36,778 nt of DNA from Armatimonadota bacterium. Lineage in GTDB: Bacteria > Armatimonadota > UBA10988. The position numbers were made by a program, and so were the translations under genes. The stretch spans positions 1 to 36,778 of the forward strand of contig JACRKZ010000128.1 of the NCBI GenBank assembly GCA_016235455.1, in the 5' to 3' direction. The notes under the pieces are model-generated. The model saw nothing but the letters and a program-made list of their open reading frames with translations. It made no database searches and was not told the origin of the DNA. Of this stretch, positions 3 through 14,630 are shown piece after piece (the first letter of the stretch is position 1; every line of letters starts with the position of its first letter).

Positions 3-596
3 GACGGGCCGAGCGGGTTGGCCGAGGCCCGCGCCGCCGATTGGGATTTGATCATCCTCGACGTCATGCTGCCGGGCATCGATGGCTATGAGGTCTGCGC
101 GCGCCTGCGCGCCGCGCGGCGGGCCGCGCCGGTGCTCATGCTCACCGCGCTCGACGGCGTGGACGATCGGGTGCGCGGGCTCGATGCCGGCGCCGACGAC
201 TATCTGGGCAAGCCGTTCGACTTCGGCGAGCTGCTGGCGCGGGTGCGCGCGCTGTTGCGCCGGGGCCAGGCCGTGCGTTCGCGCCTGGTGCAGGTGGCCG
301 ACCTGGCCATCGACACCGGCGCGCGCACCGTGCGGCGCGGCGGGCGGGAGCTGCGGCTCACGCCGCGCGAGTATGAGCTGCTGGAAGCGCTGGCCACCAA
401 TGTCGGGCGCACCGTGACGCGCGAGGAGATCCTGGAGACGGTCTGGCGCGACGACCGCAGCTATTCGGATACCATCAGCGTCCACGTCTCGTCGCTGCGG
501 CGCAAGGTGGACGGCGACAGTGAGGTCAAGCTGATCGAGACGGTCCACGGCATCGGCTACATCCTGCGCGATTCTCGCGAGCGCGAGCCACGCTGA
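3..596 (+). CDS. OmpR/PhoB-family response regulator (5' truncated by window edge)
   Basis: Receiver motifs LIILDVMLP, LMLTA, GADDYLGKPF; winged-helix LTPREYELL...VHVSSLRRK...TVHGIGY. Frame is open to the window start; stop overlaps the next ATG (TGATG). Confidence 0.95.
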   Translation, partial: DGPSGLAEARAADWDLIILDVMLPGIDGYEVCARLRAARRAAPVLMLTALDGVDDRVRGLDAGADDYLGKPFDFGELLARVRALLRRGQAVRSRLVQVADLAIDTGARTVRRGGRELRLTPREYELLEALATNVGRTVTREEILETVWRDDRSYSDTISVHVSSLRRKVDGDSEVKLIETVHGIGYILRDSREREPR

Positions 597-1936
597 TGCG
601 ACGCAGACCCTTTCGCTACCGGCTGACGCTGTGGTACATCGCCGTGCTGGCGGCGGCGCAGTTGGTGATGGCGGTGGCGGCCGGGCTGACCGTGCGGCTG
701 AGTGGTCTGCGCTCGGTGGACCGCGAACTGCGGCAGAAGGCCACTCAGCCGCTGCGTACCGAGGACCTGCTGCCGCGGCCTCGGCAGTTCGACCGCGCCG
801 ACTTCCGGCGCACGCTGGCCGTGCGGCTGCCCTTGAGCGATGCCAACCTGCTCTGGAACAGCCGCGACGCAGAGCCGGCCGCGCGCGGCGAGATGCGCTT
901 CGCCAACGTCTGGGTGGAGAACGAACACGCCCGCACACTGACCGTGCCGTGGCGCGAGTCGGGCAAGATCGTCGGCGTCATCCAGGTGGCGCGGCCGCTG
1001 GCCGGCTACGACGACATGATGGGCACGCTGCTGCGCTCGGTGCTGGTGCTGCTGCCGCTGTCGTTGCTGCTGGCCGCACTGGGCGGGAGCGCTCTGACGC
1101 GGCGCGCGCTGGCGCCGGTGCGCGCGGCCACGCGGCTGGCCGCCGAGATCGGCGTGGAGGACCTGTCGCGCCGACTGGCGGTGCATGGCGAGGACGAACT
1201 GGCCGATCTGGCGCGCACCTTCAACGCCATGTTCGACCGGCTGGAGGCATCGTTTGAACAGCAGCGCGGGTTCATCGCCGATGCCGCGCACGAACTGCGC
1301 ACGCCGCTGTCGCTGATCAAGGTCAGTTCCAGCATGGCGCTGGCCGGCGCACCCGATGCCGACGAGGATCGCCGGGCGCTGAGCGTCATCGACCAGGCCG
1401 CCGACGGCATGACCGGGCTGGTCGGCCAACTGCTGCTGCTGGCCCGCGCCGATGCCGGGCAACTCGCCGTGGAGCCCGCCGAGTTCGAGGCAGTGGACCT
1501 GCTGGAGGCCGCCATCGCTGCCGTGCCGTCAGCCGCCGGACGCGTCACCATCGCGCCGGGCGGCCGGTTCCTGATGACCGGCGACCTGGATCTGCTGTGC
1601 CGGGCGTTGGTGAACCTGGTCAGCAACGCCCTGCGGCACTCGCCCGAGGCCGCGCCCATCGAGCTCCGAGCCGCCAGCGATGGCCACAGCGCGCGGCTGG
1701 CCGTGGTCGACCACGGCGAGGGCATCGCGCCCGAGCACCTGGCGCGGGTCACCGAGCGCTTCTACCGCGTGGACCGCGGTCGCGGCCGGCGCGAGGGCGG
1801 CACGGGCCTGGGCCTGTCCATTGTGGAGGGCATCGCGCGAGCCCATGGCGGCGCGTTGGTCTTGCGGCCAACGCCGGGCGGCGGGCTCACCGCCGAACTG
1901 CAACTGCCTCTTAGTGGCATCCAGCCGGCCCCTTAA
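596..1936 (+). CDS. Membrane sensor histidine kinase (2 TM, HAMP, HisKA, HATPase)
   Basis: Two hydrophobic segments, HAMP (DELADLARTFNAM), H-box AHELRTP, N-box NLVSNALRH, DHGEGI, GTGLGL; translationally coupled to the regulator. Confidence 0.95.
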   Translation: MRRRPFRYRLTLWYIAVLAAAQLVMAVAAGLTVRLSGLRSVDRELRQKATQPLRTEDLLPRPRQFDRADFRRTLAVRLPLSDANLLWNSRDAEPAARGEMRFANVWVENEHARTLTVPWRESGKIVGVIQVARPLAGYDDMMGTLLRSVLVLLPLSLLLAALGGSALTRRALAPVRAATRLAAEIGVEDLSRRLAVHGEDELADLARTFNAMFDRLEASFEQQRGFIADAAHELRTPLSLIKVSSSMALAGAPDADEDRRALSVIDQAADGMTGLVGQLLLLARADAGQLAVEPAEFEAVDLLEAAIAAVPSAAGRVTIAPGGRFLMTGDLDLLCRALVNLVSNALRHSPEAAPIELRAASDGHSARLAVVDHGEGIAPEHLARVTERFYRVDRGRGRREGGTGLGLSIVEGIARAHGGALVLRPTPGGGLTAELQLPLSGIQPAP

Positions 1937-1962
1937 GGCCTTCTTCTGGAACGTCGGGCATA
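1932..1962 (+). promoter_or_regulatory. Putative response-regulator-dependent promoter, copy 1
   Basis: CTTAAGGCCTTCTTCTGGAACGTCGGGCATA; 24/31 identical to 8467-8497; hexamers at 11-bp period (CTTAAG 1932, CTTCTG 1943; also CTTAGT at 1910). Confidence 0.65.
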
Positions 1963-2033
1963 ACAGTCCTCAGCGCGATGGTCGCGCTCAGCGCGACGGC
2001 CGCAGCCGCTCCGCGCCGGCAAGGAGACCGACG

Positions 2034-3239
2034 ATGAACAGAACGCTGTGCTGGCTGACCTGGGTCGGCGCGCTGCTTCTAACAACCAGCGCGCAGGCCG
2101 CGCCCGCGCCTCAGGGGATGGCGCTCATTCCCGCGGGCTCATTCGAGATGGGCGACCACATCGGGTTCGTCGACCCCAAGCATGGTGGCGACGAGACGCC
2201 CATCCACACCGTGCGGCTGGACGCGCTGTACCTGGGCATCAACGATGTCACCAACCGCGAGTTCTGCGCGTTCCTCAACAGCGCTCTCGGCGCGCGGTCG
2301 GTCGAAGTGCGGCAAGGTGGTGTCTATCCCGCCGGTGGCCAGGACCTGCTCTGCGAGACGCGGGCCATGTCGCCCTACAGCCGCCTCTGGTGGGACGGCG
2401 CCAAGTTCACCGTGCTGGACGGCAAGGACAACCACCCCGTGGTCTGCATCCGATGGGAAGGCGCGGCGCTCTACTGCAACTGGCTGAGCGCACAGGCCAA
2501 ACTGCCGCTCTGCTACGATCCGGCCACCTGGGCCTGCAACTTCAATGTGAGTGGCTACCGCCTGCCCACCGAGGCCGAGTGGGAGTACGCCGCGCGCGGC
2601 GGGCTCAAGGCGCCGTATGCCAACTTCGCCTGGGGCAATGAGGCCGACGCCACGCGCGCCAACTGGCCCGAGTCCAAGAACCCGTTCCGCACCGGTCCGC
2701 TGCCGTGGACTACGCCGGTCGGCTTCTTTGACGGCTCGCTGCGCCGACGCGCTGACTTCGCCTGGCCCGATGCGCAACAGGAGACCTACCAGACGGCCCG
2801 GGGCACCAACGGCTATGGCCTGAACGACATGAGCGGCAACGTCTGGCAATTGGTCAACGACTGGTATGGCCGCGACTACTACGCCTACAGTCCGGCCGAC
2901 AACCCGCCCGGCCCCGACAAGGGCAGCCTCATGCCCGACGGCAAGCCCTATCGCGGCATGCGCGGCGGCAACTGGTTCAACGGCGAGAACGGCCACGGCC
3001 GCGTCTCCAACCGCAACCCCTCGTACTGGCGCGGGCCCGAAGACCCCAACCACCCCTACTACCACATCGGCTTCCGCGTGGCGCTGCCCATCGACGCCGA
3101 GAAGCGCCCCGTGACTCGGCTCACGCCGGCCCAGGACGTGCCGCGTGGCGCTGGTCAGGGCCAGCCTGGTCAGGGCCAGGCCAAGGTGGTGGTCAGGCTG
3201 CCATCACGTTGCCGCCGAAGCAGGGCAGCATGGCCCTGA
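2034..3239 (+). CDS. Secreted FGE-sulfatase (SUMF1/EgtB/PvdO-like) domain protein; probably the N-terminal part of a frameshifted fusion running to 5542
   Basis: RBS AAGGAG then ATG 2034; signal peptide ending SAQA; IPAGSFEMG, VTNREF, RLPTEAEWEYAARGG, NGYGLNDMSGNVWQ, RGGNW, IGFRV. The tail after 3180 looks out of frame. Confidence 0.85.
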   Translation: MNRTLCWLTWVGALLLTTSAQAAPAPQGMALIPAGSFEMGDHIGFVDPKHGGDETPIHTVRLDALYLGINDVTNREFCAFLNSALGARSVEVRQGGVYPAGGQDLLCETRAMSPYSRLWWDGAKFTVLDGKDNHPVVCIRWEGAALYCNWLSAQAKLPLCYDPATWACNFNVSGYRLPTEAEWEYAARGGLKAPYANFAWGNEADATRANWPESKNPFRTGPLPWTTPVGFFDGSLRRRADFAWPDAQQETYQTARGTNGYGLNDMSGNVWQLVNDWYGRDYYAYSPADNPPGPDKGSLMPDGKPYRGMRGGNWFNGENGHGRVSNRNPSYWRGPEDPNHPYYHIGFRVALPIDAEKRPVTRLTPAQDVPRGAGQGQPGQGQAKVVVRLPSRCRRSRAAWP

Positions 3240-5542
3240 CCAGCCCGGTGGTGCAGGACGGCGGCGCGCTGCCATCCGAGTACACCGGTGATGGCGTGGC
3301 GGCCACCCTGCCCTTGGCGTGGAGCGGTGCCCCGGCGGGCACGCAGGGCTTCGCGGTGATCATGCACCACACCGACCCGCAAGGCGTGGCCAAGTGGTAC
3401 TGGACGCTGTACAACATCCCGGCCAACGTCACCAGCCTGCCCAGGAACGTGACCGGCATCGGCACGCTGGGCACCAACAGCGTTAACGAACGGCTCGCCT
3501 ACGCGCCGCCCATGTCCAAGGGGCCCGGCGCCAAGCTCTACACCTACACGGTCTATGCCTTGTCCGGCGCGCCACGGCTCACGGTGCCGGCTGACCGCGT
3601 GGACCGCGCCGCCCTGCTGGCCGCCATGGACGGCCTGGTGTTGGCCAGCGGCGAACTGCGCGTGACCTACACGCGCACCGGCATGGCCGACCCCAACGGC
3701 GGCGGCCCGCAAGGCGGGGGCCAGCCGGGGCCGCCCAACGGAGGTGGTGCCCGCGGCGGGTTTCAGAACGCTCAAGCGGGCGGTCAGATGGGTGGCGAGC
3801 AGCGCGGGCCTGGCGCTGGTGGCCCTGGTGGCGGTGGCGGCGGTGGCGGCCGCATGGAGATGCCTGAGAACAAGACGCCGACCTCGCCCAACGCCGGCCA
3901 AACCGTCGGGCTCTTTATGAACAAGCCGCAGTCCTTCGCGGGCTACACGCTGTTCGCGCCCAAGCACAACAACATCATCTTCCTGATGGACAACAACGGG
4001 CAGGTGGTGCACTGGTGGAAGAGCGACTACGAGCCCGGCCAGTCGGTCTATCTCAAGCCCAATGGCAACCTTCTGCACTGCTGCTTCACCAAGAGCCAGG
4101 CGTTCACCGGCGGTGGCGAGGGCGGGCGCGTGGAGGAGTTCGACTGGGACGGCAAGCTGGTCTGGGAGTTCAACTACTCGAGCGACACCTACCTCTCGCA
4201 CCACGACATCGCGCCGCTTCCCAATGGCAACATCCTCATGCTCGTGGTCGAGAAGAAGAGCATCGAGGACGCGCTGGCAGCCGGCTTTAGCCCGCAGATG
4301 CTGCGCGACCGCCAGCTCTTCCCTGATTCGGTGGTAGAGGTGCAGCCGATCTACCCCAACGGCGGCAAGATCGTCTGGCAGTGGCGGGTGTGGGATCACC
4401 TCATCCAGGACAGCGACCGCACCAAGGCCAACTTCGGTGACGTTGCGGCGCATCCCGAGCTGATCGATGTGGCCTGCAACGGCCGCGCCACACCGGCCTT
4501 CTGGAACCACATGAACTCGATTGCCTACAACGCCAAGCTCGACCAGATCATGGTCAGCGCGCGCGGCTGCAACGAGATCTGGGCCATTGACCACAGCACG
4601 ACCACCGAGCAGGCCGCTGGCCACAGCGGCGGGTTCCACGGCAAGGGCGGCGACCTGATCTACCGCTGGGGCAACCCCGCGGCCTATCGGCGCGGCACCG
4701 AGGCCGACAAACAGCTCGTGCAGCAGCACGACGCCGAGTGGATCCCCGACGGCTCGCCCGGCGCCGGTCATGTGACCATCTTCAACAACGGCTACGACCG
4801 TGGCTGGTCGAGCATCGAGGAGATCGAGCTGCCGCTGGACGCGAACGGTCACTACATCCTCGAACAGGGCAAGCCCTACGGGCCGGCCAAGCCCGTCTGG
4901 CACTACGAGGCGAAGAACCGCACGGACTTCTTCTCCTCGGAGATCTCCGGCGCCAGCCGCCTGCCCAATGGCAACACGCTGGTCTGCGCCGGTGTGGTGG
5001 GCCATCTGTTCGAGGTGACGCCGACCGGCGAGATGGTCTGGCAGTACGTCAACCCGATGGTGCGCGGCGGCTGCCTGGCGCAGGGCGAGCTGCCCGGCAA
5101 GGATGTGCGCGGCCACCTGTGGAACGCGGTGTTCAAGGTGCACCGCTACGCGCCGGACTACCCCGGCCTGGTCGGCCGCGAACTCAAGCCCATCGCGCTG
5201 ATCGAGCTGCCCGCCGACCAGAAGGGCAAGACCGGTCTGGACCAGGCCAACGCTACGCCCGATGAGTTCCCGCGCAACGAGCCCGGCGGCCAGGGCGGAC
5301 CTGGCGGTGGCGGCGGTCGTGGCGGTCAGGGCGGACCTGGTGGCGGCGGCGGTCGTGGCGGTCAGGGCGGACCTGGCGGTGGCGGCCGTGGTGGTCAGGG
5401 CGGACCTGGCGGTGGCCCCGGCGGCCAAGGCGGTCAAGGCGGCGGACCAGGTGGCGGCCAAGGCGGCCAAGGCGGCGGACCTGGCGGCGGCCAGGGCGGA
5501 CCTGGTGCTGGCGGCGGCGGCGGCATGGGTGGCCCCGGCTAG
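3209..5542 (+). CDS. YbhB/YbcL (PEBP-like) domain + aryl-sulfate sulfotransferase (ASST-like) domain + Gly/Gln-rich tail; probably the C-terminal part of the same fusion
   Basis: LTSPVVQDGGALPSEYTGDG...LAWSGAPAGT...YNIP...YTVYAL (PEBP-like); GYTLF, SHHD, WNHMNS, VSAR, QQHD, RLPNGNTL (ASST-like). No RBS or signal peptide of its own. Confidence 0.85.
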   Translation: MPPKQGSMALTSPVVQDGGALPSEYTGDGVAATLPLAWSGAPAGTQGFAVIMHHTDPQGVAKWYWTLYNIPANVTSLPRNVTGIGTLGTNSVNERLAYAPPMSKGPGAKLYTYTVYALSGAPRLTVPADRVDRAALLAAMDGLVLASGELRVTYTRTGMADPNGGGPQGGGQPGPPNGGGARGGFQNAQAGGQMGGEQRGPGAGGPGGGGGGGGRMEMPENKTPTSPNAGQTVGLFMNKPQSFAGYTLFAPKHNNIIFLMDNNGQVVHWWKSDYEPGQSVYLKPNGNLLHCCFTKSQAFTGGGEGGRVEEFDWDGKLVWEFNYSSDTYLSHHDIAPLPNGNILMLVVEKKSIEDALAAGFSPQMLRDRQLFPDSVVEVQPIYPNGGKIVWQWRVWDHLIQDSDRTKANFGDVAAHPELIDVACNGRATPAFWNHMNSIAYNAKLDQIMVSARGCNEIWAIDHSTTTEQAAGHSGGFHGKGGDLIYRWGNPAAYRRGTEADKQLVQQHDAEWIPDGSPGAGHVTIFNNGYDRGWSSIEEIELPLDANGHYILEQGKPYGPAKPVWHYEAKNRTDFFSSEISGASRLPNGNTLVCAGVVGHLFEVTPTGEMVWQYVNPMVRGGCLAQGELPGKDVRGHLWNAVFKVHRYAPDYPGLVGRELKPIALIELPADQKGKTGLDQANATPDEFPRNEPGGQGGPGGGGGRGGQGGPGGGGGRGGQGGPGGGGRGGQGGPGGGPGGQGGQGGGPGGGQGGQGGGPGGGQGGPGAGGGGGMGGPG
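5285..5420 (+). repeat. Coding tandem repeat, ~36-bp unit (GGQGGPGGGGGR), 3 full copies plus a partial one
   Basis: Units at 5285-5320, 5321-5356, 5357-5389 (33 bp) and from 5390; core CAGGGCGGACCTGG recurs. Confidence 0.9.
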
Positions 5543-5593
5543 CGGCCACCTGCCCTGCGGCAGCCAACTGACGACGACGAAACGAGGTGAGTG

Positions 5594-7270
5594 ATGAAGC
5601 GCCTGGCACGATCGCACCGGCTTCTCACAACGCTGCAACTGACGCTGGTCCGCCTGTTGCTGCTCTATGCCTGGGTCACTCCGGCCCTCAGCTACGAGCG
5701 GCTGCAAGGCCCGACCGAGCTGCTCTATGCCGATCCACAGTTGGCCCAACCGGGCTACACGCTGTTCGGCGCGCGCGGCACAACGTACCTGTTGGACCTG
5801 CAGGGCCAGGTGGTACATACCTGGCCCGCGGGCACCAACCCGCACCTGCTGGCCAACGGCAACATTCTGGACGCCTCGCGCGACGACCCCAGTGGCACGG
5901 CGGGCTTGCGCGAGGTGGACTGGGACGGCAAGCTGGTCTGGGAGTACACCGAGAAGCGCGCCGGCTATGCGCCGCACCATGACTGGACCCGCATCTACAA
6001 CCCGCAGCTCAAGGCACTGACGACGCTGTACATCGCGAACAAGACGATCAGCGAGGAGCAGGCGCTGGCCGCGGGGGCCAACCCGGCCACAGGCCCGTAC
6101 CGCGACACGCAGATGGACGCCGTGGTCGAGGTCGACGCCAACGGCCAGGTGGTCTGGGAGTGGTGGTTCTTCGACCATGTCGTCCAGGATATTGATCCGG
6201 CCAAGCCCAACTACGTGGGGCAGGGCAAGACCGTAGCCGACTATCCCGGCCGGATCAACATCAACATGCCCGGCAAGCCGCTGCACCGCGACTGGCTGCA
6301 CTGCAACTCCATCGATTACAGCCCCGAACTCGACCAGATCGTGGTCAACTCGGTGCAAGGCGAGCTGTACGTGATCGACCACGGCGGCACGTTCGTGGCG
6401 GGCGATGCCGCCGCCAGCATTGCCAAGGCGGCTGGTCCGGCGGGCGACTTCCTGTATCGGTTCGGCGACCCGGCGCGCTACGGCCAGGGCGAGCCGCCGT
6501 CCATCGGCCAGAACTGGGACGCGGCAAGCTCGGGCCACAAACAGATGGGCGGCACACACCACGTTTCGTGGATCCGCGCCGGCCTGCCTGGGGCGGGCCA
6601 CCTGCTCATCTTCAACAACGGGCAGTACCTGTACCAGCGCACGCCGCATTCGTCTGTGTTGGAGGTCAACCCCTACCTGGACGGCAACGGCCGCGACACG
6701 GGCAAGTACGTCAACCCGCCCTTGGCCGGCTACCGTCGCGAGCAGTATGACAAGGACACCCACAACCAACCGCGCCTGGTCTCCAACCAGATCGTCTGGA
6801 GCTACAGCCCCAACAACAGCCACGGCTTCTTCAGCCACATCGGCTCCAGCGCGCAACGGCTGCCGAACGGCAACACGTTCATCTGCTCGGATACCGAGGG
6901 CCACTTCTTCGAGGTGACCAGCGACGGCCGTCTGGTCTGGGAGTACATCAACCCCATCACGCCGCAAGGCCCGGTGAAGGTCATCGGTGACAACCTGCCC
7001 ATGCTCAACTCGGTCTTCCGCGCCTTCCGGCTGGCTCCCGACCACGCCGCACTCAAAGGCCGGGAGTTGACCCCGCGCGGCACGATCACCGGCGCGACGC
7101 CCAGCCCTATGCCCGCGACCGTGCAGCCCGTTTCGACCGGCCAGGTCCAACAGGGCCAGACCGGTGGCCCCGGTGGCGGGCAGCGTGGCCAAGGCGGCGG
7201 ACAGCGTGGCCTAGGCGGCCAGGGCGGTGGCCAGGGCGGACAAGGTGGAGGACAGCGTCAGCCGCAGTAG
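5594..7270 (+). CDS. Second secreted aryl-sulfate sulfotransferase (ASST-like) protein
   Basis: RBS GAGGTG; start GTG 5591 or ATG 5594; N-terminal hydrophobic signal; GYTLF, PHHD, WLHCNS, GTHH, QRLPNGNTF; clear paralog of the upstream ASST domain; Gly/Gln-rich C-tail. Confidence 0.88.
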   Translation: MKRLARSHRLLTTLQLTLVRLLLLYAWVTPALSYERLQGPTELLYADPQLAQPGYTLFGARGTTYLLDLQGQVVHTWPAGTNPHLLANGNILDASRDDPSGTAGLREVDWDGKLVWEYTEKRAGYAPHHDWTRIYNPQLKALTTLYIANKTISEEQALAAGANPATGPYRDTQMDAVVEVDANGQVVWEWWFFDHVVQDIDPAKPNYVGQGKTVADYPGRININMPGKPLHRDWLHCNSIDYSPELDQIVVNSVQGELYVIDHGGTFVAGDAAASIAKAAGPAGDFLYRFGDPARYGQGEPPSIGQNWDAASSGHKQMGGTHHVSWIRAGLPGAGHLLIFNNGQYLYQRTPHSSVLEVNPYLDGNGRDTGKYVNPPLAGYRREQYDKDTHNQPRLVSNQIVWSYSPNNSHGFFSHIGSSAQRLPNGNTFICSDTEGHFFEVTSDGRLVWEYINPITPQGPVKVIGDNLPMLNSVFRAFRLAPDHAALKGRELTPRGTITGATPSPMPATVQPVSTGQVQQGQTGGPGGGQRGQGGGQRGLGGQGGGQGGQGGGQRQPQ

Positions 7271-7291
7271 CGCGTCACGCCAGCGCACGGT

Positions 7292-7331
7292 GGGACATGG
7301 CCGGCAGCCCGGGCCGGCCATGTCCCGTTTT
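7292..7331 (+). terminator. Intrinsic terminator
   Basis: Perfect 14-bp stem GGGACATGGCCGGC/GCCGGCCATGTCCC, 7-nt loop, followed by GTTTT, 21 nt after the stop codon. Confidence 0.8.
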
Positions 7332-7428
7332 GGGTGGAATGGATCTGGACGCCGACGGCGTATCTGCGTCATAGCAGCGGATGTCACCTATCCGTGGGTG
7401 CGAGAGTCGGGCCCTGGAGGCAAGAACG

Positions 7429-8433
7429 ATGGCAGATAGCGATCAGATTTCCCGCCGGTCCTTCGTGCAGAACGTGGCCGTCGGCGCCGGCGCCGTGGCG
7501 CTGGCCGGCGCCGCGTCAGCCCAGACCGCGCCGGCGCCCGCGGGCGAGGCCAAGAAGAGCCGAGTGGTCATCGTGCGCCACTCGGGCGCGACCAACAAGG
7601 ACGATGTTCAGGCGGGCCCGGTGACCGAGATGGTCGACCGCGCCATGCTGGAACTGACCGGCGCGGCCACGGTGCGCGAGGCCTGGGCGCGCTACTTCAA
7701 GCCCGAGGAGCGCGTGGGCATCAAGGTCAACGCGCGCGGCGGCCCGACCATCGCCGTGGCGCCCTGCATCCTCAAAGTGTGCGTCGACCGGCTGGTCGAG
7801 TTGGGCGTCAAACCGGCCAACATCATCCTGTGGGACATGTATCCCGACGATCTCAAGAACAGCGGCATGAGCAAGGAAGGGTTCCACGGCGCGCAGGTCA
7901 TGACCTCCGATGTCGGCTGGAGCCCGGAGCTGGAGCAGGGCGTCTGGAAAGGCTCGCTGAGCACCATCGTCACCGAAAAGGTGGACGCCATCCTGAATCT
8001 GCCCATCGTCAAGGACCATGTGCTGTGCGGCGTGACGCTGGCCCTCAAGAACCACTACGGCACCATCAACAACCCCTCCAAGTACCATGCCGACAACTGC
8101 GACCCAGCCGTGGCCGACATCAACAACACGCCCGCCATCCGCGGCAAGCACCGTCTGGTCATCTGCGACGGCACGCGCTCGCTGCCCGACGGCGGCCCAC
8201 ACCTCAAGCCCGGCTTCCTGCTCTACACCAACTTCATCATGGCCGCCTCCGACCCCGTGGCCCACGACACCATCGGCTGGCAGATCATCGAGGAGCAGCG
8301 CAAGACCCACTTCCAACTGCCGCCGCTGGCCCGTGTCGGCCGGCCCCCCAAGCACCTGCGCTCGGCCGCGGAGCGCGGGCTGGGCACCGACCAGCTCGAC
8401 CAAATCGACAAGATCGATATCACGCTGGCGTGA
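7429..8433 (+). CDS. Tat-exported DUF362-domain protein
   Basis: RBS GGAGG; ISRRSFV twin-arginine signal; VGIKVN, ILNLPIVKDH...GVTLALKNHYG, ASDPVAHD, GLG motifs typical of DUF362. Confidence 0.85.
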   Translation: MADSDQISRRSFVQNVAVGAGAVALAGAASAQTAPAPAGEAKKSRVVIVRHSGATNKDDVQAGPVTEMVDRAMLELTGAATVREAWARYFKPEERVGIKVNARGGPTIAVAPCILKVCVDRLVELGVKPANIILWDMYPDDLKNSGMSKEGFHGAQVMTSDVGWSPELEQGVWKGSLSTIVTEKVDAILNLPIVKDHVLCGVTLALKNHYGTINNPSKYHADNCDPAVADINNTPAIRGKHRLVICDGTRSLPDGGPHLKPGFLLYTNFIMAASDPVAHDTIGWQIIEEQRKTHFQLPPLARVGRPPKHLRSAAERGLGTDQLDQIDKIDITLA

Positions 8434-8466
8434 GACCCGCGAGCGCTTGGCGCTCCCGCATCCCAG

Positions 8467-8497
8467 CTTAAGGGCATCTTAGGGAACCCAGGGCATA
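8467..8497 (+). promoter_or_regulatory. Putative response-regulator-dependent promoter, copy 2
   Basis: CTTAAGGGCATCTTAGGGAACCCAGGGCATA; CTTAAG-N5-CTTAGG direct repeat; matches 1932-1962. Confidence 0.7.
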
Positions 8498-8535
8498 TGC
8501 CATTTGGGCGCGACGTCGTTGGCGCCCAAAGGAGC

Positions 8536-9846
8536 ATGGAGATGAGAGCGATCACCCTGATGGTCATCGCGACCATGGTTCTCTCCGCGTGTGCCCTGCG
8601 TGCCCAAGGCCCGGGTGGGCCGCCGCCGCCACCGCGCGATGGCGCCCGCCCGCCGCGCGCCGGCGGACCGCCGCCGCGTGATGGCGCGGGCCGGCAGGAC
8701 GAATACTCGCTGGCCCAGGCCATCTCCGACCAGGCGCAGTTGCACACCATCGCCTTCGACGGTCTGGCCTTCCTGACCGGCGAGGTCGGCGCGAACACCT
8801 TCCTGCCGCCGGGCAAGGTGTGCGACTACTTCGGCTTCCAGTACATGCGCGATGTCGAGCCGAAGGGCGGCGGTCACAACACCGACTTCCTGACGCGCAT
8901 CGCGAACAACATGCTGCGCACCTACTCGCCCGCGCAGCTGGCCGAGCTGGTCACGCTGGCCAGCGGGCAGGTTGGCGGCTTCCGCGAGTTCGCCACCCGG
9001 CGGTTCGCGCTGATTGGCGCGTTCGACCGCCAGCGGCGCGGCGCTGTGCCCGCGGGTAGTGCCGGCCTCAACCGCGAGGCGGTGATGCGCTATTCGGCCG
9101 ACCTGTGGGCGCTCGACGGTCAGTTGGCGTACGACCGCGCCCGCGTCATGGGCCACATCGTCAGCAGCTTCACGCCCGAGCAGAAGGCCTACCTGGCCAA
9201 GCTCAAGTTCGGCGACTCCGGCACCTGGCCCGACGTGCCCGAGACGTTCGACAAGCGTAGCGTGCCGCACGACGTGCACGTGGCCGTGATGACCTATGCC
9301 AGCGAGATGTTCAGTTGGTATGCGGGCAGCGTCGAGGCGGATGTCTACTTCTGCCCTGAGCGCCACGCCACCTACTTCGGCTCCTTCTACATGAAGGACC
9401 GGCCGGTGATGGGCAAGCGCAACGCCTCCATCAGCACGTCGGTGACCGGTGACAGTGGCGCGGAGTTCCTGACCGCCCTGGCCCCCGCACAGCGCCAGAA
9501 CGTCACCAGCCTGGTCGACCTGCAGCGTGGCGACCTGGCCGAGGTGGTCAAGGTGCGGCGCGAGATCTCCATCGAGCTGCGCCGCTTCCTGGCGGGGCAG
9601 ACCGCTGACCACGCCAAGGTCATCGCACTGTCGCGGCGCTACGGCGAACTCGACGGGGCCATGTCCTACAACCTGGCGGTGGCCTTCGCCAAGGTGGGCC
9701 AGACGCTAACTGCCGAACAGGCAGCCAAACTCAAGCGTCTGCGCAACCTGGACGATTATCCGTGCACGGGAGCGTACATCTACTCCGAGCCGATCCCGCT
9801 GCCCGACTTTGGCAGCTCGGACTTCCTGTTCACCGCCGCCAAGTGA
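8536..9846 (+). CDS. Exported hypothetical protein with two tandem Spy/CpxP/ZraP-like (LTxxQ) helical modules
   Basis: Start 8536 or 8542 after AAAGGAG; signal peptide (possible lipobox LSAC); YSPAQ...FTPEQ and LAPAQ...LTAEQ pairs; duplicated YFGxxYMxD. Confidence 0.6.
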   Translation: MEMRAITLMVIATMVLSACALRAQGPGGPPPPPRDGARPPRAGGPPPRDGAGRQDEYSLAQAISDQAQLHTIAFDGLAFLTGEVGANTFLPPGKVCDYFGFQYMRDVEPKGGGHNTDFLTRIANNMLRTYSPAQLAELVTLASGQVGGFREFATRRFALIGAFDRQRRGAVPAGSAGLNREAVMRYSADLWALDGQLAYDRARVMGHIVSSFTPEQKAYLAKLKFGDSGTWPDVPETFDKRSVPHDVHVAVMTYASEMFSWYAGSVEADVYFCPERHATYFGSFYMKDRPVMGKRNASISTSVTGDSGAEFLTALAPAQRQNVTSLVDLQRGDLAEVVKVRREISIELRRFLAGQTADHAKVIALSRRYGELDGAMSYNLAVAFAKVGQTLTAEQAAKLKRLRNLDDYPCTGAYIYSEPIPLPDFGSSDFLFTAAK

Positions 9847-9856
9847 GGAGCCACCG

Positions 9857-11338
9857 ATGGCCGAGCATCTCTCGCGCCGTGACTTCCTGACCCTGACCGC
9901 TGCCGCCGGGCTGCTCGCAGCCCGGCGGGGCGGCTGTCAGCCTGGCACAGGCCGCCCCAACTTCGTGATCATCCAGGGCGAGGGCCAAGGCTGGAGCAGC
10001 CTCGGCCTGTCGATGGATCCTCGCCTGCCCAACGCCCACAGCACGCTCTCGCGAACGCCCAACCTGGCGGCTCTGGCCGCGGCGGGTATGTGCTTCGCCC
10101 AGGCCTACGTGGCCTCGCCGCGCTGCACGCCATCGCGCACCGCGCTGGTCACGGGGATCAACCCCGCGCGCCTGCACATGACCTTCGTCAACGAAGGCGG
10201 CGAGGGCAAGCGACGAGCCGGCGGCGACAACACCCGACTGCTCCCGCCCAGCCCGCTCATGGAGCTGCCCGCAGGCACCCAGACCGTGGCCCACCGCCTC
10301 CATGCCGCCGGCTATGCCTCGGCGCACTTCGGCAAGTGGCACGTCGGCCGCAGCGACCCCAAACTGCACGGTTTCGACGAGAGCGACGGTGCCAACGCCA
10401 ATGGCGGGCCGGATAACGTGGCCAACCCCAACCCCGGCCAAGGCCAGCTGCTGACCGAACGCGGCCTGGACTTCATGGCCCGCAGCGCCGCGGCCCGTCG
10501 GCCGTTCTACCTCCAACTCGACCACTACGGCGGCAAGGACCCGGCCGACGTGCGCCCGCAGACCTGGGCCGATGTCGCCGGGCGGTCCGACGGCCGGTTC
10601 AAGGACAAGGACCTGGGCAACGCCGCGGTCATGGAGGATGTCGACACGATGATCGGCCTGGTGCTGGCCAAGGTGGAGGCGCTCGGCCTGGCCGGCAACA
10701 CGTACGTCGTCTACCTCGCCGACCACGGCACGCCGGGGCCGAACCAGCCGCTGTCGGGCGGCAAGGGCACGCTGTGGGACGGTGGCCTGCGCGTGCCGCT
10801 GATCGTGCGTGGGCCGGGCATCGCCGCCGGTTCACGCTGTGCGGCGCGTGTGACCAACTGCGACTTGATGCCCACGGTGCTGGAGCTGGCCGGTGTCACC
10901 GAGCCGTTGCCGGCGACCGTGGACGGCGGCAGCCTGGCGGGCTTGCTGCGCGCCGGTGGCCTGGGCGTGGTGAAGCGCCCGCGCGAGGAACTGGTCTTCC
11001 ACTACCCGCACTACGACATGGACGCCAACGGCCCCGGTTCGTCGATCATCGTCGGCGACGACAAGCTGACGCGCTACGACGAGGGGCCCAGTCTGCATCT
11101 CTACAACCTGGCCGCCGACCCCAGCGAACAGCGCGACCTGGCTGCGGCCTCGCCCGCCAAGGTGACCGCGCTGCAGGAACGGCTCGATGCCTGGCTCAAC
11201 GCGGCCGGCGCCCAACGGGTCAGCCGCAACCCCAACTACGACCCCAACGCCGCCCCGACGGCGCCCGCCGCGGGTGGTGGCGGCCGTGGTGGCGGTCGAC
11301 GAGGCGGCCAAGGCGGCGGCCAGGGCGGTGCCCAATGA
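9857..11338 (+). CDS. Tat-exported Cys-type sulfatase
   Basis: RBS GAGGAG; LSRRDFL; RPNFVII; CTPSRTALVTG (CxPxR); GKWHVG; ADHG; GKGTLWDGGLRVP; LYNLAADPSE. Confidence 0.93.
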   Translation: MAEHLSRRDFLTLTAAAGLLAARRGGCQPGTGRPNFVIIQGEGQGWSSLGLSMDPRLPNAHSTLSRTPNLAALAAAGMCFAQAYVASPRCTPSRTALVTGINPARLHMTFVNEGGEGKRRAGGDNTRLLPPSPLMELPAGTQTVAHRLHAAGYASAHFGKWHVGRSDPKLHGFDESDGANANGGPDNVANPNPGQGQLLTERGLDFMARSAAARRPFYLQLDHYGGKDPADVRPQTWADVAGRSDGRFKDKDLGNAAVMEDVDTMIGLVLAKVEALGLAGNTYVVYLADHGTPGPNQPLSGGKGTLWDGGLRVPLIVRGPGIAAGSRCAARVTNCDLMPTVLELAGVTEPLPATVDGGSLAGLLRAGGLGVVKRPREELVFHYPHYDMDANGPGSSIIVGDDKLTRYDEGPSLHLYNLAADPSEQRDLAAASPAKVTALQERLDAWLNAAGAQRVSRNPNYDPNAAPTAPAAGGGGRGGGRRGGQGGGQGGAQ

Positions 11339-12819
11339 ACACCTCACGACGGCAGGTCGGGTTGGTGCTCGTGATCGTGGTCAGCCTGGCGCTGGCCGCG
11401 CTGGGCCAGGGCCGCGGCCCGGGCCGTGGTCCCGGCGGCCCGCGGCAAGGCGGCGGCCAGGGCGGACCGCAGGGCCCACAGGGCGGCGTGTCATTCCACA
11501 CCGACGTCCCCGCGCACGACCTCGACGTCATCGTCTGCCGGCCGGGTGCGGACCGCGTCAGCCTGAGCATCGTGGCCTACGGCGACCGCCGCGCCTACGT
11601 CGCCTGGGGTCCGGCCCAGGGCCGGCTCGAGCAGCGCTGCGACCTGCGCCCGTTCGCCGCCGGCGTGCCGCAGACAGTCGAGCTAACAGGCTTGAAATCG
11701 GATTCTCAGTACGACTGGGAGCTACGTGAGGAGCAGGGCAAAGTGCTGGCACGCGGCGCCTGCCATACCCAGCGCCGGCCGGGCAGCGAGTTCACCTTCA
11801 CCATCACCGCCGATTCGCATCTGGACGAGCAGACAGACCTGGCGCTCTATCAGCGTGCGCTGGCCAACGCCGCGGCGGATCGGCCGGACCTGAACGTCGA
11901 CCTGGGCGACACCTTCATGACCGAGAAGTACCCGGGCGACTGGCACGCCGCGCGCGCGCAGTACACCGCGCAACGCTACTACTTCGGCCAGCTCTGCTCG
12001 TCGGTGCCGCTGTTCCTCACCCTGGGCAACCATGACGGCGAGCTGGGCTACCTGGCCGACGGCACACCCGGCAGCATGGCTGCCTGGTCGCTCGACCTGC
12101 GGCGGCGCTTCTTCCCCAATCCCGAGCCCGGCGGCATCTACACCGGCAACGCCGTGCCGGAGCCGGGCCTCGGTCTGTTGCAGGACTACTACGCCTGGGA
12201 ATGGGGCGATGCCCAGTTCATCGTGCTCGATCCTTTCTGGCCGGTGCGCGGCAAGCCCAACCGCCAGGATGGCGGCTGGTCGCGCACGCTGGGTGAGCCG
12301 CAGTACCGTTGGCTGGTCAAGACGCTGGCTGGCAGCCAGGCCAGGCACCGCTTCGTGTTCATCCACCATCTGGTGGGCGGGCTCGACAACAACTGCCGTG
12401 GTGGCGCCGAGGCCGCGCGGTTGCTCGAGTGGGGCGGCCTCAACCCCGACGGCACGCCTGGCTTCGCGCAGCATCGGCCCGGATGGGAACTGCCCATCCA
12501 CGACCTGCTCCGCCGCTACGGCGTCGAGGCTGTCTTCCATGGCCACGACCACTTCTATGCCAAGCAGGAACTGGATGGCATCGTCTATCAGATGGTGCCG
12601 CAGCCGGGCCATCCCGGCCGGCGCACCGAGGGCCAGGCGGCCAACTACGGCTACAAGTCAGGCACCATCCTCGGCGGCTCCGGGCATTTGCGCGTGACGG
12701 TGACGCCGGGCGCGGCGCGCGTGGCGTTCGTCCGCGCGGTCGGCGCTGGCGAGGAGCGCGACGGCTGGCGCAATGGCGATGTGGGCGACAGCTACACGCT
12801 GGGGCCGCAAGCGAAGTGA
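11335..12819 (+). CDS. Exported calcineurin-like metallophosphoesterase with FN3/purple-acid-phosphatase-like N-domain
   Basis: ATGA overlap with the sulfatase stop; signal peptide with SRR; motifs ADSH, LGDTF, LGNHD, FIHH, HGHDH. Confidence 0.92.
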   Translation: MNTSRRQVGLVLVIVVSLALAALGQGRGPGRGPGGPRQGGGQGGPQGPQGGVSFHTDVPAHDLDVIVCRPGADRVSLSIVAYGDRRAYVAWGPAQGRLEQRCDLRPFAAGVPQTVELTGLKSDSQYDWELREEQGKVLARGACHTQRRPGSEFTFTITADSHLDEQTDLALYQRALANAAADRPDLNVDLGDTFMTEKYPGDWHAARAQYTAQRYYFGQLCSSVPLFLTLGNHDGELGYLADGTPGSMAAWSLDLRRRFFPNPEPGGIYTGNAVPEPGLGLLQDYYAWEWGDAQFIVLDPFWPVRGKPNRQDGGWSRTLGEPQYRWLVKTLAGSQARHRFVFIHHLVGGLDNNCRGGAEAARLLEWGGLNPDGTPGFAQHRPGWELPIHDLLRRYGVEAVFHGHDHFYAKQELDGIVYQMVPQPGHPGRRTEGQAANYGYKSGTILGGSGHLRVTVTPGAARVAFVRAVGAGEERDGWRNGDVGDSYTLGPQAK

Positions 12820-12866: not shown

Positions 12867-14630
12867 ATGCTCGACCCGTTGGTGTTATGGCTATTCGCGT
12901 GGTGCGCCCTGGCGGTGCAGCCACGCCTGGTCTATCTGGCCAACGGACCCATCTTCCAGGTTGGCGCCGCCTTCGCCCAACGGCAGCTGGCCTGGTGCGG
13001 CGGACCTGCCCAGTATGCCGGTGCGTTCCTGGCCCAACTGGACCACTGGGATCTGGCCGGTGCGCTGATCCGCTGTCTCCAGGCGCTGCTCATCGGCTGG
13101 CTGGCCCAGCGCGCCGTGGCCGCCGTCACCGGCCGCGAGACGCGCGTGGTGCGCTGGTTGGCCATGCTGCCGTATCTCCTGCTCTCTGGCCGGTTCGACG
13201 CGAACCCCGCCATCGGGCTGATGGCCGTCGGACTGCTGGCCGCGGCCTGGCTGCGCGCCGCGCTGCCACGTTCGCGCCCGCTGGTGCATGCGGCGCTGTG
13301 CCTGGCGCTGGCCTACACCGTCGGTGGCGCCGACGGCCGCGCGGGGCTGTGGGTCACCTTGGCCAGCTTCGGCCTGCTGGCCGCCGTCGCCGAGCGCCGC
13401 TGGGCGGCGCTGGCTCAGGTCCTGACCGCGCTGGCCACGGCGGGCGTGGCGGGCCTGTTCCTGGCGCCCGCGGGTGTCGATGCGCCACGGCAACCGGCGC
13501 TGATCACCCAGCTGCTCACCTATGCGCTACTGCTGGCGGCACCAGCCTGCGCGGCGGCCATCAGGCTGTGGCCCGAACGCGCGGCCACGGGTCAGCCGGC
13601 GCCGTCACGCGGGCAGCGTCTGGTGCTGATAGTCGGCGCCGTCGCGGTGGTCCATCTGCTCGCCGGCCTGGTCGCCGCCAGGCAGCCCGCGCGGCTGCAG
13701 GCCGAACGCGACGAGCTGGTGTTGGCAGAACAGTGGGACCAGGTGCTGACCAGGCTGGGCCGCCAGCCGGGCCTCGACGCGCTGGCCATCCATGACATCG
13801 ACACGGCGCTGGCCCATCGCGGTCGGCTGGCCGAGGATCTGTTCCGGTATCCGCAGCTGCCCGAGGCGTTGGTGTTGCCCATGTCGGTGCCCAACACGTT
13901 CTCGGCGCGGCTGAGGCTGGCCGATCAGTACCTGTTGCTCGGGCGCCCCAACCAGGCTGAGTATGCGCTGCAGAACGCGCTGGCGCACACAGGCGACAAT
14001 CCCTATCTGCTGCGCCGGCTGGTGCTCACCTACCTGGTCAAGGGCGACACGGATGCCGCGCGCCTCTATCTGCGCGTGCTGCGCCGCGATATCGTCCACG
14101 GCGGCTGGGCGCGCGAGCAGTTGCGTCGGCTCGCGCGCGATCCATCGGCGTCGTTCGATCCCCGCGTGGCCGAGCTGCGCGCCGGCATGGTCGAGCGTGA
14201 CGACCTGCTGGAGATCACCGACACGGCCAAGGGCGAGGAGACGGTGGCCTACTTCCAGAACGTGTCGCTGTCGAACCTGCTCGATGCCAGGCCCGGACGC
14301 CGGCTGGCACTCGACTACCTCATGTCGCTCTACCTGGTCAACGGTCGGCCCGACGGCGTGGTGCAGGAGATGCACCGGCTGCGCGGCTGCGGCATGACGC
14401 GCATCCCCGCACCGTGGGAGGATGCGCTGCTGATCCAGATGAGCGTGCCCGGCGCGAAGATCGACCTGCACGGTCTGGCCATCAGCGACGAAGGGTATGA
14501 GCGCATGAGGCGCTTTGGTCGCCTGCTCGCCTCTGAGGGCGGCAACCTGCGCACCGTCTGGCCGCGGGTTGCCAGCGCGTTGCCAGGCACCTTCCTGGCC
14601 TACATGACGCGCCTGAAGGTCGGCGGATGA
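12867..14630 (+). CDS. DUF6057-like multi-pass membrane protein with TPR-like C-terminal region
   Basis: Several hydrophobic helices; GGPAQYAGAFLAQ, ALAHRGRLAEDLFRYPQ, ALDYLMSLYL resemble DUF6057; alternative GTG start at 12816. Confidence 0.7.
   Translation: MLDPLVLWLFAWCALAVQPRLVYLANGPIFQVGAAFAQRQLAWCGGPAQYAGAFLAQLDHWDLAGALIRCLQALLIGWLAQRAVAAVTGRETRVVRWLAMLPYLLLSGRFDANPAIGLMAVGLLAAAWLRAALPRSRPLVHAALCLALAYTVGGADGRAGLWVTLASFGLLAAVAERRWAALAQVLTALATAGVAGLFLAPAGVDAPRQPALITQLLTYALLLAAPACAAAIRLWPERAATGQPAPSRGQRLVLIVGAVAVVHLLAGLVAARQPARLQAERDELVLAEQWDQVLTRLGRQPGLDALAIHDIDTALAHRGRLAEDLFRYPQLPEALVLPMSVPNTFSARLRLADQYLLLGRPNQAEYALQNALAHTGDNPYLLRRLVLTYLVKGDTDAARLYLRVLRRDIVHGGWAREQLRRLARDPSASFDPRVAELRAGMVERDDLLEITDTAKGEETVAYFQNVSLSNLLDARPGRRLALDYLMSLYLVNGRPDGVVQEMHRLRGCGMTRIPAPWEDALLIQMSVPGAKIDLHGLAISDEGYERMRRFGRLLASEGGNLRTVWPRVASALPGTFLAYMTRLKVGG

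Follow-up and report, generated by a model that had tools for sequence, protein, structure and literature searches.

CpxP, Spy and ZraP are single-unit proteins of ~100-160 residues, and in the CpxRA-CpxP, BaeSR-Spy and ZraSR-ZraP systems an exported helical protein of this LTXXQ family stands beside a two-component system (TCS) of the OmpR type or a related one. The same arrangement occurs in the stretch of DNA analyzed here, a window of 36,778 nucleotides from an Armatimonadota bacterium (assembly GCA_016235455.1, contig JACRKZ010000128.1), where a response regulator (RR) and a sensor histidine kinase (HK) share a locus with an LTXXQ-like gene that has the common box upstream. An earlier note on this sequence had rightly recognized the CpxRA-CpxP/ZraSR-ZraP layout. 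In contrast to CpxP, Spy and ZraP, however, the LTXXQ unit of the window is doubled to 434 residues with invariant His, Cys and Glu motifs and, rather than standing alone, is linked to phosphoesterases, PEBP proteins and arylsulfotransferases (ASSTs). The locus encodes the TCS, a protein combining an FGE fold, a PEBP domain and an ASST (ASST1), a second ASST (ASST2), the doubled LTXXQ protein, an S1-family sulfatase and a metallophosphoesterase (MPE). Tentatively, and with a little less than even confidence, we read it as one instance of a widespread and apparently unstudied family of exported-enzyme clusters that would process phosphate and sulfate esters as an inducible envelope module.

Further components of the locus can be set beside described systems. 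In Salmonella and Klebsiella, the PmrA box is described as half-site 1, CTTAAG, followed after 5 bp by half-site 2, xTTAAT (PMC3973317, partial text). The two boxes of our locus share CTTAAG, the 5-bp spacer and a CTT-type second half-site with it, and the adjacent TCS belongs to the same broad OmpR clade as PmrA/PmrB (BasRS), but half-site 2 reads CTTCTG or CTTAGG instead of xTTAAT, both proteins fall far below the cut-offs of the PmrA and PmrB equivalog models and the locus is without lipid-A-modifying genes. With Bacillus subtilis PhoD and the purple acid phosphatases (PAPs) of plants and animals, the MPE shares a beta-sandwich plus dimetal phosphoesterase fold, ligand motifs and export; the PhoD site is reported to hold Fe3+ and two Ca2+ (PMC4223295, partial text). 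Unlike these enzymes, the MPE stands in paralogue pairs or with a sulfatase, has LTXXQ, PEBP and ASST partners and is accompanied by no recognizable Pho regulator. Escherichia coli AssT, which goes with DsbL/DsbI, resembles the window ASSTs in that both are exported and match the Pfam ASST family above cut-off, and ASST1 keeps four AssT positions. ASST1 differs in being fused to a PEBP domain and a cysteine-less FGE fold and in having a second paralogue beside it, and Dsb partners are missing among the locus genes.

Gene neighbourhoods were compared from two anchors. For the LTXXQ protein, one genome per species was scanned, yielding 302 relatives, of which the best 80 loci were compared; for the ASST, a metagenome scan yielded 508 relatives, of which the best 79 loci were compared. 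Locus matches are tblastn matches of the window proteins at E <= 1e-6 (E <= 1e-5 in a recheck of DUF362), and the well-flanked sets comprise 44 LTXXQ loci flanked by 5 kb or more on either side and 25 ASST loci with at least 8 kb downstream (Table 1). The best 80 LTXXQ loci are spread over more than ten phyla, including Verrucomicrobiota, Planctomycetota, Acidobacteriota, Proteobacteria, Bacteroidota, Chloroflexota, Armatimonadota, Firestonebacteria, NC10 and Actinomycetota, and by record title many are metagenome-assembled genomes (MAGs) from lakes, peat, groundwater and sludge. The earlier note had proposed such a search, starting from the ASSTs, the LTXXQ protein and the phosphoesterase, and had named scattered homologues without conserved linkage as the outcome that would speak against a system. 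Linkage instead recurs over phyla from both anchors, together with domain fusions, and the MPE is found in 31 of the 44 and 21 of the 25 well-flanked loci. The co-occurrence with an OmpR-type TCS that the note had named as support stands in part, with an RR within 5 kb in 13 of the 44 LTXXQ loci, but the TCS is facultative and other regulators take its place elsewhere.

Table 1 Module proteins found near relatives of the LTXXQ-like protein and of the ASST (loci with a match/loci compared)
Protein	LTXXQ anchor, all	LTXXQ anchor, within 5 kb	ASST anchor, all	ASST anchor, within 10 kb
MPE	47/80	31/44	41/79	21/25
HK	27/80	14/44	5/79	3/25
RR	25/80	13/44	7/79	4/25
PEBP	21/80	9/44	27/79	15/25
ASST (ASST2 for the ASST anchor)	11/80	4/44	50/79	22/25
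FGE-like	10/80	3/44	56/79	21/25
Sulfatase	6/80	4/44	15/79	11/25
LTXXQ (second copy for the LTXXQ anchor)		10/44	10/79	4/25
DUF362, DUF6057, PD40	0	0	0	0

All 85 MPE matches in the LTXXQ loci are co-oriented with the LTXXQ gene, and the usual order is LTXXQ, optionally PEBP, a low-identity MPE and a high-identity MPE. In this pair the first MPE is 35-41% and the second 47-57% identical to that of the window. A sulfatase lies between LTXXQ and MPE in four loci (L011, L029, L038 and L046), as it does in the window; it follows LTXXQ in L035, where there is no MPE match, and in L012 an ASST intervenes before the sulfatase, which the MPE then follows. Since the MPE that follows a sulfatase matches only the high-identity type (five loci, L035 having none), the sulfatase takes the slot of the low-identity MPE paralogue. 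The window order of FGE-PEBP-ASST, ASST2, sulfatase and MPE is likewise repeated in other loci, such as L095 (there together with RR and HK), L098, L103, L115, L121 and L138. Among 121 Armatimonadota genomes, the MPE subfamily is present in nine and the LTXXQ protein in five; all five LTXXQ genomes have the MPE, and the two genes adjoin in four of the five genomes carrying both. The cluster family thus has the MPE, not the ASSTs, as its hub, with the LTXXQ protein apparently an accessory of the MPE.

The same partners are joined by domain fusions. Of the 120 best LTXXQ relatives, 17 combine the LTXXQ domain with PEBP, and in other fusions PEBP or the FGE fold is joined to an ASST. Of 57 long cluster representatives with an LTXXQ domain, 11 carry PEBP, five SGL, five Lcl_C, four T9SS sorting tails, one an EF-hand and one a Metallophos domain (P0377), and several carry Ig-like, PKD, cadherin or similar domains. 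For comparison, a 2022 genome-context survey of PEBP/YbhB genes found conserved neighbourhoods to be rare, and the available part of its text mentions neither phosphoesterase nor sulfatase nor Spy (PMC8793217). Judged by predicted gene content, the family is composed of the MPE hub, the doubled LTXXQ protein, PEBP in free or fused form, the FGE-PEBP-ASST protein with ASST2, and an S1 sulfatase in the second-MPE slot.

Other genes were also seen in or near these loci. SGL propellers (SMP-30/gluconolactonase/arylesterase-like) recur beside the module (L012:18237-19520) or fused to LTXXQ or PEBP-ASST proteins (P0298, P0304, P0320, P0321, P0339 and P0166). In a Verrucomicrobiia MAG (L048:8240-9937), a YHYH-domain and PEBP fusion lies directly 5' of the LTXXQ gene and an FGE+ASST fusion, and in L106 (5538-13277), as in L107, the ASST, sulfatase and MPE genes have between them a GH106 rhamnosidase and a SASA acetylesterase that carries PKD domains. 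A phage-type integrase gene lies ~10 kb or closer to the LTXXQ gene in four of the 80 loci (L033, L040, L060 and L067), which, together with cross-phylum identities of 50-65%, hints at lateral mobility.

The fusion of FGE-like, PEBP and ASST parts described in the earlier note is interrupted in the window as assembled, where the FGE-like and PEBP-ASST open reading frames (ORFs) overlap in different frames and the latter is without its own signal peptide. A contig from sequencing run X1 (depth 31) carries window positions 2600-3180 on its positions 31-611 and window positions 3176-3800 on its positions 704-1328, and thus has 97 extra bases at 3176-3180, of which 92 are unaligned and five duplicated; as 97 mod 3 is 1, these bases join the two frames. 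In a second run, X2, the loose ends at 3176 and 3178 are Gly/Gln-coding repeats. The window may itself derive from the sample of X1, whose contig is therefore an independent assembly rather than an independent sample. The break is a collapsed low-complexity Gly/Gln repeat in which ~97 bases were lost, splitting one gene of ~1200 codons in two. The fusion is equally borne out by relatives. In the Planctomycetia contig L066 a single ORF covers all three parts, FGE residues 1-369 at 70%, PEBP 405-559 at 66% and ASST 784-1084 at 78% identity. Among the best 120 relatives of the PEBP-ASST protein, FGE+PEBP+ASST is the commonest architecture (74 proteins of 1025-1306 residues), followed by ASST alone (26), PEBP+ASST (18, including that of the window) and FGE+ASST (2). 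EF-hand pairs were observed in 17 of these 120 (for example, L066:1285-4539, P0129, P0133 and P0154), at the position of the Gly/Gln linker of the window protein.

Catalytic positions were assessed domain by domain. The FGE-fold domain aligns with the FGE structure 6muj (E 5e-22), but at neither position of the C-x4-C pair of FGEs 6muj and 2q17 does this alignment place a cysteine; the FGE-like protein has Cys only at residues 6, 78, 107, 138, 148, 160, 168 and 393. We take this pair, near the FGE C terminus, to be the catalytic cysteines, and because both are missing, the domain is not a sulfatase-maturing enzyme. The locus does hold a CxPxR sulfatase and an FGE-fold protein, as a sulfatase and FGE maturation pair would, but the missing cysteines and the occurrence of FGE relatives in 56 of 79 ASST loci against 15 of 79 for the sulfatase indicate that it is not the maturase of this sulfatase, and the reading of the FGE-like domain in that role was not borne out. 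A role as flavinylation target was considered as well and rejected, as the domain contains no ApbE-type motif [ST]G[AS][ST].

The PEBP domain matches 3n08 (E 3.9e-10). Its first motif reads HHTDPQG in the window, HHIDPEG in L066 and HHVAPDQ in L020, and in the second motif Ala-Lys of the window protein aligns with His-Arg of 3n08; DPDxP and GxHR-type motifs are presumably those of the PEBP anion pocket. Both ASSTs exceed the PF05935 cut-off of 24.2 bits (98.8 and 57.9), and ASST2 is 37% identical to ASST1. ASST1 aligns with E. coli AssT (E 2e-06) and has His, His, Asn and Arg at AssT positions 252, 356, 358 and 374, with a conserved His one position off AssT His436. As we understand the AssT active site, it consists of His252, His356, Asn358 and Arg374, with His436 as sulfuryl acceptor. 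Retention of the first four positions suggests that ASST1 is catalytically competent, an activity predicted from the alignment.

The MPE matches no PDB entry by sequence, but its structural model (pLDDT 84.1), in which an alpha/beta core follows strands at 63-158, retrieved PhoD (2yeq, E 4.4e-21, TM 0.60) and wheat purple acid phytase (6gj9, E 2.1e-20) in Foldseek, with purple acid phytase and kidney-bean PAP matches at E 1e-18 to 1e-20. The dimetal motifs ADSH, LGD, GNHD, IHH and GHDH are present, and D160, H162, D189, H233, D234, H344, H404 and D405 are invariant in an alignment of 18 sequences. On the strength of this model the MPE is PhoD/PAP-like, and its catalytic motifs are intact. In the sulfatase, CTPSR aligns to CSPTR of its best solved relative, the kappa-carrageenan sulfatase 9fo1 of subfamily S1_16 (E 2.3e-65).

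The LTXXQ-like protein scores just below the Pfam cut-offs for LTXXQ (PF07813, 22.0 against 24.3 bits) and further below that for Metal_resist (18.0 against 29.2), and a precomputed PF07813 match is present in many of its relatives. Its N-terminal and C-terminal halves align with each other over 153 columns (hhalign probability 98.1, E 1.2e-13), revealing an internal duplication. The model is all-helical (pLDDT 76.7) and had no Foldseek match at E <= 0.001; VIA alignment gave CpxP (3itf, Z 3.9, 103 aligned residues, rmsd 5.0) and CnrXs (3zg1, Z 3.7), Z values below 5 and in the noise range for helical proteins. A profile search against PDB sequences yielded nothing meaningful, and the matches in the ESM Atlas were unnamed LTXXQ and Metallophos clusters only. 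The family is large, with 3836 matches among 8000 scored candidates, and 434 of 1.84 billion cluster representatives at 50% identity match the protein at E <= 1e-30. It is unusually conserved, at ~60% identity between phyla, with invariant motifs rich in His, Cys, Glu and Asp; the closest organism-named relative (73-74% identity) comes from Fimbriimonadaceae (Armatimonadota). The genome encodes a second doubled-LTXXQ protein (G000:C8:16024-17650; L010 ~9000-10700) of 47% identity with a lipoprotein-like N terminus, flanked by two more boxes, one 5' of a prepilin-type N-methyl/DUF1559 gene and the other 5' of a single-domain response regulator.

Both boxes of the locus match the 31-base pattern CTTAAGG-N3-TCTT-N2-GGAAC-N3-GGGCATA with 0 mismatches, and the pattern had 0 matches in 100 shuffles, in agreement with the upstream motif that the earlier note had seen in front of two sub-operons. 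Derived from these two sites, it matches only them in the 6.5 Mb genome at up to one mismatch. The core of the box is a direct repeat, CTTAAG, 5 bp, CTTnnG. Four of five genome matches to a degenerate form lie at the doubled-LTXXQ loci C64 and C8, all four followed by a similar GG-CATA element; a looser expression was too noisy for use. In a genome of the same family (G004), the orthologous site 5' of the LTXXQ gene reads CTTCAG-N5-CTTTAG followed by GGCAT. The kinase of that genome (L011 9134-9814) matches only residues 3-91 and 290-440 of the window HK and looks shortened or broken, while its RR, LTXXQ, sulfatase and MPE genes are intact.

Directly 3' of ASST2, the region 7268-7345 folds at -41.5 kcal/mol (z -2.81); a consensus terminator scan missed the hairpin within it because its stem is followed by only four T, and a sigma-70 promoter scan returned 0 sites. 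The likely units, as predicted from this layout, are RR-HK, box 1 with the three-domain gene and ASST2, DUF362 alone, and box 2 with LTXXQ, sulfatase and MPE. The best NCBIfam models are the heavy-metal RR TIGR01387 for the RR (202.9 bits, below its cut-off of 279.2, in a protein ~30 residues short) and the heavy-metal sensor kinase TIGR01386 for the HK (219.3 bits, below 292.55). Against PmrA (NF007928) the truncated RR scores 158 bits with a cut-off of 330, and against PmrB (NF008025) the HK scores 121.1 with a cut-off of 314. Most likely, the adjacent OmpR-type TCS would activate both sub-operons through the PmrA-box-like direct repeats.

Regulators and neighbours in other loci were grouped by single-linkage clustering of six-frame ORFs after known genes had been masked, because without masking, fusions and antisense shadows drew separate families together. 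ECF sigma factors (11 loci), small Metal_resist (PF13801) proteins and EF-hand proteins (three loci) recur, as do a LytTR regulator and its kinase in Bacteroidales loci. The window's genome has another OmpR-type TCS on contig C151 (G000:C151:31521-34290, L093), whose regulator is up to 63% identical to module-linked TCSs of other phyla; only G004 has the window type. The C151 TCS is divergent from a gene for a 143-residue secreted protein with Gly/Gln and Met-Gly repeats and no Pfam family, with a perfect palindrome in the intergenic region. A similar palindrome separates the TCS from the LTXXQ gene in beta-proteobacterial loci, and we take both palindromes to resemble CopR/CusR-type boxes. 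In some Verrucomicrobial and Planctomycete loci CTTCAC-N5-CTTAAG occurs ~25 nt 5' of the start codons of module genes, and L090 repeats a GTAAG-N6-GTAAA element 5' of the TCS and 5' of the ASST. The module is thus wired to different envelope-type regulators in different lineages.

A compositional trait also sets the module products apart. Windows in which at least 12 of 15 residues are Gly, Gln, Pro or Arg occur in the FGE-like linker, the PEBP-ASST linker and tail, the ASST2 tail, the N terminus of the LTXXQ protein (Pro/Gly/Arg-rich), the sulfatase tail and the N terminus of the MPE; there are none in DUF362, the kinase, DUF6057 or PD40. The earlier note had likewise pointed out Gly/Gln-rich segments in five products. 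Under a stricter filter, five of 5745 ORFs of the genome have such a segment, three of the five in the window locus. The spacer after the signal peptide averages 25% Pro, 17% Gly, 16% Arg and 12% Gln in 20 LTXXQ proteins and 18% Gly, 14% Pro, 13% Arg and 11% Gln in 18 MPE proteins. The segments mark exactly the module products in the window, and the spacer is a trait common to phyla.

From gene content, linkage, boxes and catalytic motifs we infer the following course of events. A metal-ion- or envelope-stress-type signal would switch the system on. On extracytoplasmic organic matter, the MPE would hydrolyse phosphate esters, while the sulfatase and the ASSTs would hydrolyse or transfer sulfate esters; the substrates are probably phenolic/humic or glycan-bound esters, from which phosphate and sulfate would be mobilized or removed. 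The PEBP domain may bind the anionic ester group, and the doubled LTXXQ protein may assist Fe/Ca-type phosphoesterases, acting as their chaperone or handling metal for them. The earlier proposal that sulfate and phosphate groups are moved or released is, in this respect, reasonable but unproven.

Several observations weigh against this picture. Expression and activity of the module genes are predictions throughout. Seven of the 44 well-flanked LTXXQ loci are without any partner within 5 kb, the LTXXQ protein is rare from the ASST side (four of 25 loci), and four of the nine MPE-bearing Armatimonadota genomes are without it, one of these four being only 69% complete. The locus counts are not independent, as they come from best-scoring subsets that include near-duplicate contigs (L161/L168, L106/L107 and L132/L133), and hence show recurrence rather than unbiased frequencies. 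On the regulatory side, 24 of 25 OmpR-type TCSs in other loci are closer to the C151 TCS than to that of the window, so the case for control by the window TCS is carried by the boxes and by a single relative from the same family. Across the genome, the degenerate box shows no enrichment (five matches against eight for the reversed control), which leaves its placement as the telling feature, and the strict box shows no enrichment in the 80 loci plus the window (nine against five for the reversed control). Finally, ASST2 has Gln at the position of AssT Arg374, and the nearest solved relatives of the sulfatase are carbohydrate sulfatases, not arylsulfatases.

Other explanations start from the same genes. 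The module could be an unrecognized extracytoplasmic pathway in which the MPE, a pair of ASST-fold histidine-based group transferases and the anion-binding PEBP domain would successively process a single class of phosphate/sulfate esters, aryl or glycan, of natural organic matter, possibly with phospho-sulfo exchange and with the LTXXQ protein as a dedicated periplasmic maturation or metal-loading factor of the MPE. We regard this more specific version as unlikely, if worth keeping in view; were it true, it would give the CpxP/Spy fold a new role and bacterial PEBP and environmental ASSTs their first physiological one. Rather doubtful, too, is a defence against phenolic (tannin or humic) stress, in which the ASST pair would sulfate toxic phenols in the periplasm and the LTXXQ protein would act like Spy, keeping polyphenols from aggregating envelope proteins and leaving phosphoesterases and sulfatase as protected cargo or side activities. 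Spy protects against tannins, ASST1 keeps the AssT catalytic positions, and the module genomes are, by record title, largely lake, peat, groundwater and sludge MAGs. Bacterial PAPS-independent aryl sulfotransferases are reported to sulfate phenols and polyphenols (PMC13426309, partial text), and EGCG is reported to strongly induce BaeS and an adjoining LTXXQ gene in Pseudomonas fluorescens (PMC5435343, partial text). However, the hub of the family is a phosphoesterase, an ASST is found in only 11 of the 80 LTXXQ loci, LTXXQ is rare beside ASSTs (four of 25), and a natural sulfate donor is not evident.

We consider it improbable that the locus serves metal defence, an example that the earlier note had given, with a metal-sensing TCS inducing phosphatases whose phosphate precipitates metals or which strip surface anions, and with the LTXXQ protein as a ZraP/CnrX-like periplasmic metal binder. 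Such a role would fit the invariant His, Cys, Glu and Asp of the LTXXQ family, the EF-hand and Calx-beta fusions, the PmrA-like boxes, the palindrome of the beta-proteobacterial loci and the recurrence of small Metal_resist (PF13801) proteins and ECF sigma factors. It would also fit the heavy-metal families to which the best NCBIfam TCS models belong, but all TCS models score below curated cut-offs, genes for efflux or metal transport are not among the recurrent neighbours, and the tight link of the ASST/FGE fold to the MPE (21 of 25) would be left without a role. Very improbable in our judgement is a sulfated-glycan degradation locus, similar to a polysaccharide utilization locus, in which the sulfatase would remove sugar sulfates and the other enzymes further decorations. 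The sulfatase is indeed closest to carbohydrate sulfatases (S1_16), and one locus (L106) places a rhamnosidase and an esterase amid module genes, both matched by tblastn in L107; yet relatives of the GH106 enzyme occur in two of 79 and two of 80 loci and those of the SASA esterase in three of 79 and none of 80, the window locus has no glycoside hydrolase, and the sulfatase is missing from most loci (present in six of 80 and 15 of 79). That unrelated exported enzymes merely lie side by side is an explanation to which we give almost no credence: DUF362, DUF6057 and PD40 do fail to travel with the other genes, but co-oriented linkage recurs over phyla from two anchors, multiple domain fusions exist, and boxes and low-complexity segments are common to the module. 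Our preferred reading remains the inducible, exported phosphate- and sulfate-ester module.

The earlier note knew of no characterized pathway with this composition, and the literature searched likewise held no description of the cluster. We found no paper joining LTXXQ with a metallophosphoesterase, although subscription journals and preprint supplements may hold more; among the matches listed, none combined ASST with PhoD, metallophosphoesterase or PEBP, and the doubled form of LTXXQ appeared in no title or abstract start. We know of no physiological role for bacterial PEBP proteins or for most PAPS-independent aryl sulfotransferases, whereas PhoD and PAP-type enzymes play a major part in the turnover of organic phosphorus. 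The fusion-linked module ties PEBP, ASST, the PhoD/PAP-type MPE and a doubled CpxP/Spy-like protein together and thereby gives each of these four families concrete partners. For freshwater, peat and groundwater bacteria it points to a so far unstudied way of handling phosphate and sulfate esters of organic matter, and the PmrA-like boxes together with a cultured carrier, Sapientia aquatica SA-152, whose locus L084 runs RR-HK-LTXXQ-MPE-MPE, make its regulation directly testable.

The window represents the first 36,778 of the 43,017 bases of its contig, in an assembly of 6.5 Mb in 185 contigs with a G+C content of ~70%. G+C at third codon positions (0.8-1.0) backs every plus-strand frame from 3 to 12819, and this and the Pfam calls agree with the earlier description of an RR and HK followed by co-oriented exported genes with the listed domains (Table 2). 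Export signals were read from N termini only: those of the FGE-like, ASST2 and LTXXQ proteins are Sec-like, DUF362 (SRRSFV) and the sulfatase (SRRDFL) have twin-arginine N termini, and SRRQVG of the MPE fits the Sec or Tat type. For the sulfatase, the Tat models TIGR01409 and PF10518 gave 18.1 and 17.2 bits, the latter below its cut-off.

Table 2 Features of the locus and its surroundings in the window
Feature	Position	Strand	Remarks
OmpR-family RR	3-596	+	PF00072 + PF00486; 5' end cut by contig end
Sensor HK	596-1936	+	Two membrane segments, periplasmic loop, HAMP, HisKA, HATPase
Box 1	1932-1962	+	CTTAAG-N5-CTTCTG then GGGCATA; overlaps HK stop; ends 72 nt 5' of FGE-like start
FGE-sulfatase-domain ORF	2034-3239	+	PF03781 147.9 bits; domain part and signal peptide 2034-3180
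Assembly collapse in Gly/Gln-coding linker	3176-3180	.	Causes apparent frame break
PEBP + ASST ORF	3230-5542	+	PF01161 68.1 bits; PF05935 98.8 bits
PEBP part	~3269-3671		
Gly/Gln linker	3686-3865		
ASST beta-propeller	~3965-5054		
Gly/Gln tail	5267-5542		
ASST2	5594-7270	+	PF05935 57.9 bits; own signal peptide; Gly/Gln tail 7136-7270
Terminator-like hairpin	7289-7336	+	17-bp perfect stem then GTTTT; ends predicted sub-operon 1
DUF362	7429-8433	+	65.3 bits
Box 2	8467-8497	+	CTTAAG-N5-CTTAGG then GGGCATA; ends 44 nt 5' of LTXXQ start
Doubled LTXXQ-like protein, 434 aa	8542-9846	+	Exported; Pro/Gly/Arg-rich spacer after signal peptide
S1-family sulfatase	9857-11338	+	PF00884 139.6 bits; twin-arginine N terminus; Gly/Arg/Gln tail
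MPE	11335-12819	+	PF00149 35.5 bits against cut-off 21.5
DUF6057 membrane protein (195 bits) and PD40 beta-propeller protein	12867-16138	+	3' of module, same orientation; outside module

Three neighbours were considered as members and rejected. DUF6057 and PD40 each had matches in none of the 80 LTXXQ-anchor loci. DUF362, which the earlier note had counted in the module, was matched in none of the 80 LTXXQ-anchor and none of the 79 ASST-anchor loci (0 of 159), has a terminator-like hairpin upstream and is without a box of its own. The remaining genes of the window are housekeeping genes, among them those for FtsY, topoisomerase I, DprA and PfkB. The DUF362 protein with its Tat signal has three paralogues elsewhere in the genome, at 60% (C51), 56% (C48) and 40% (C113) identity.

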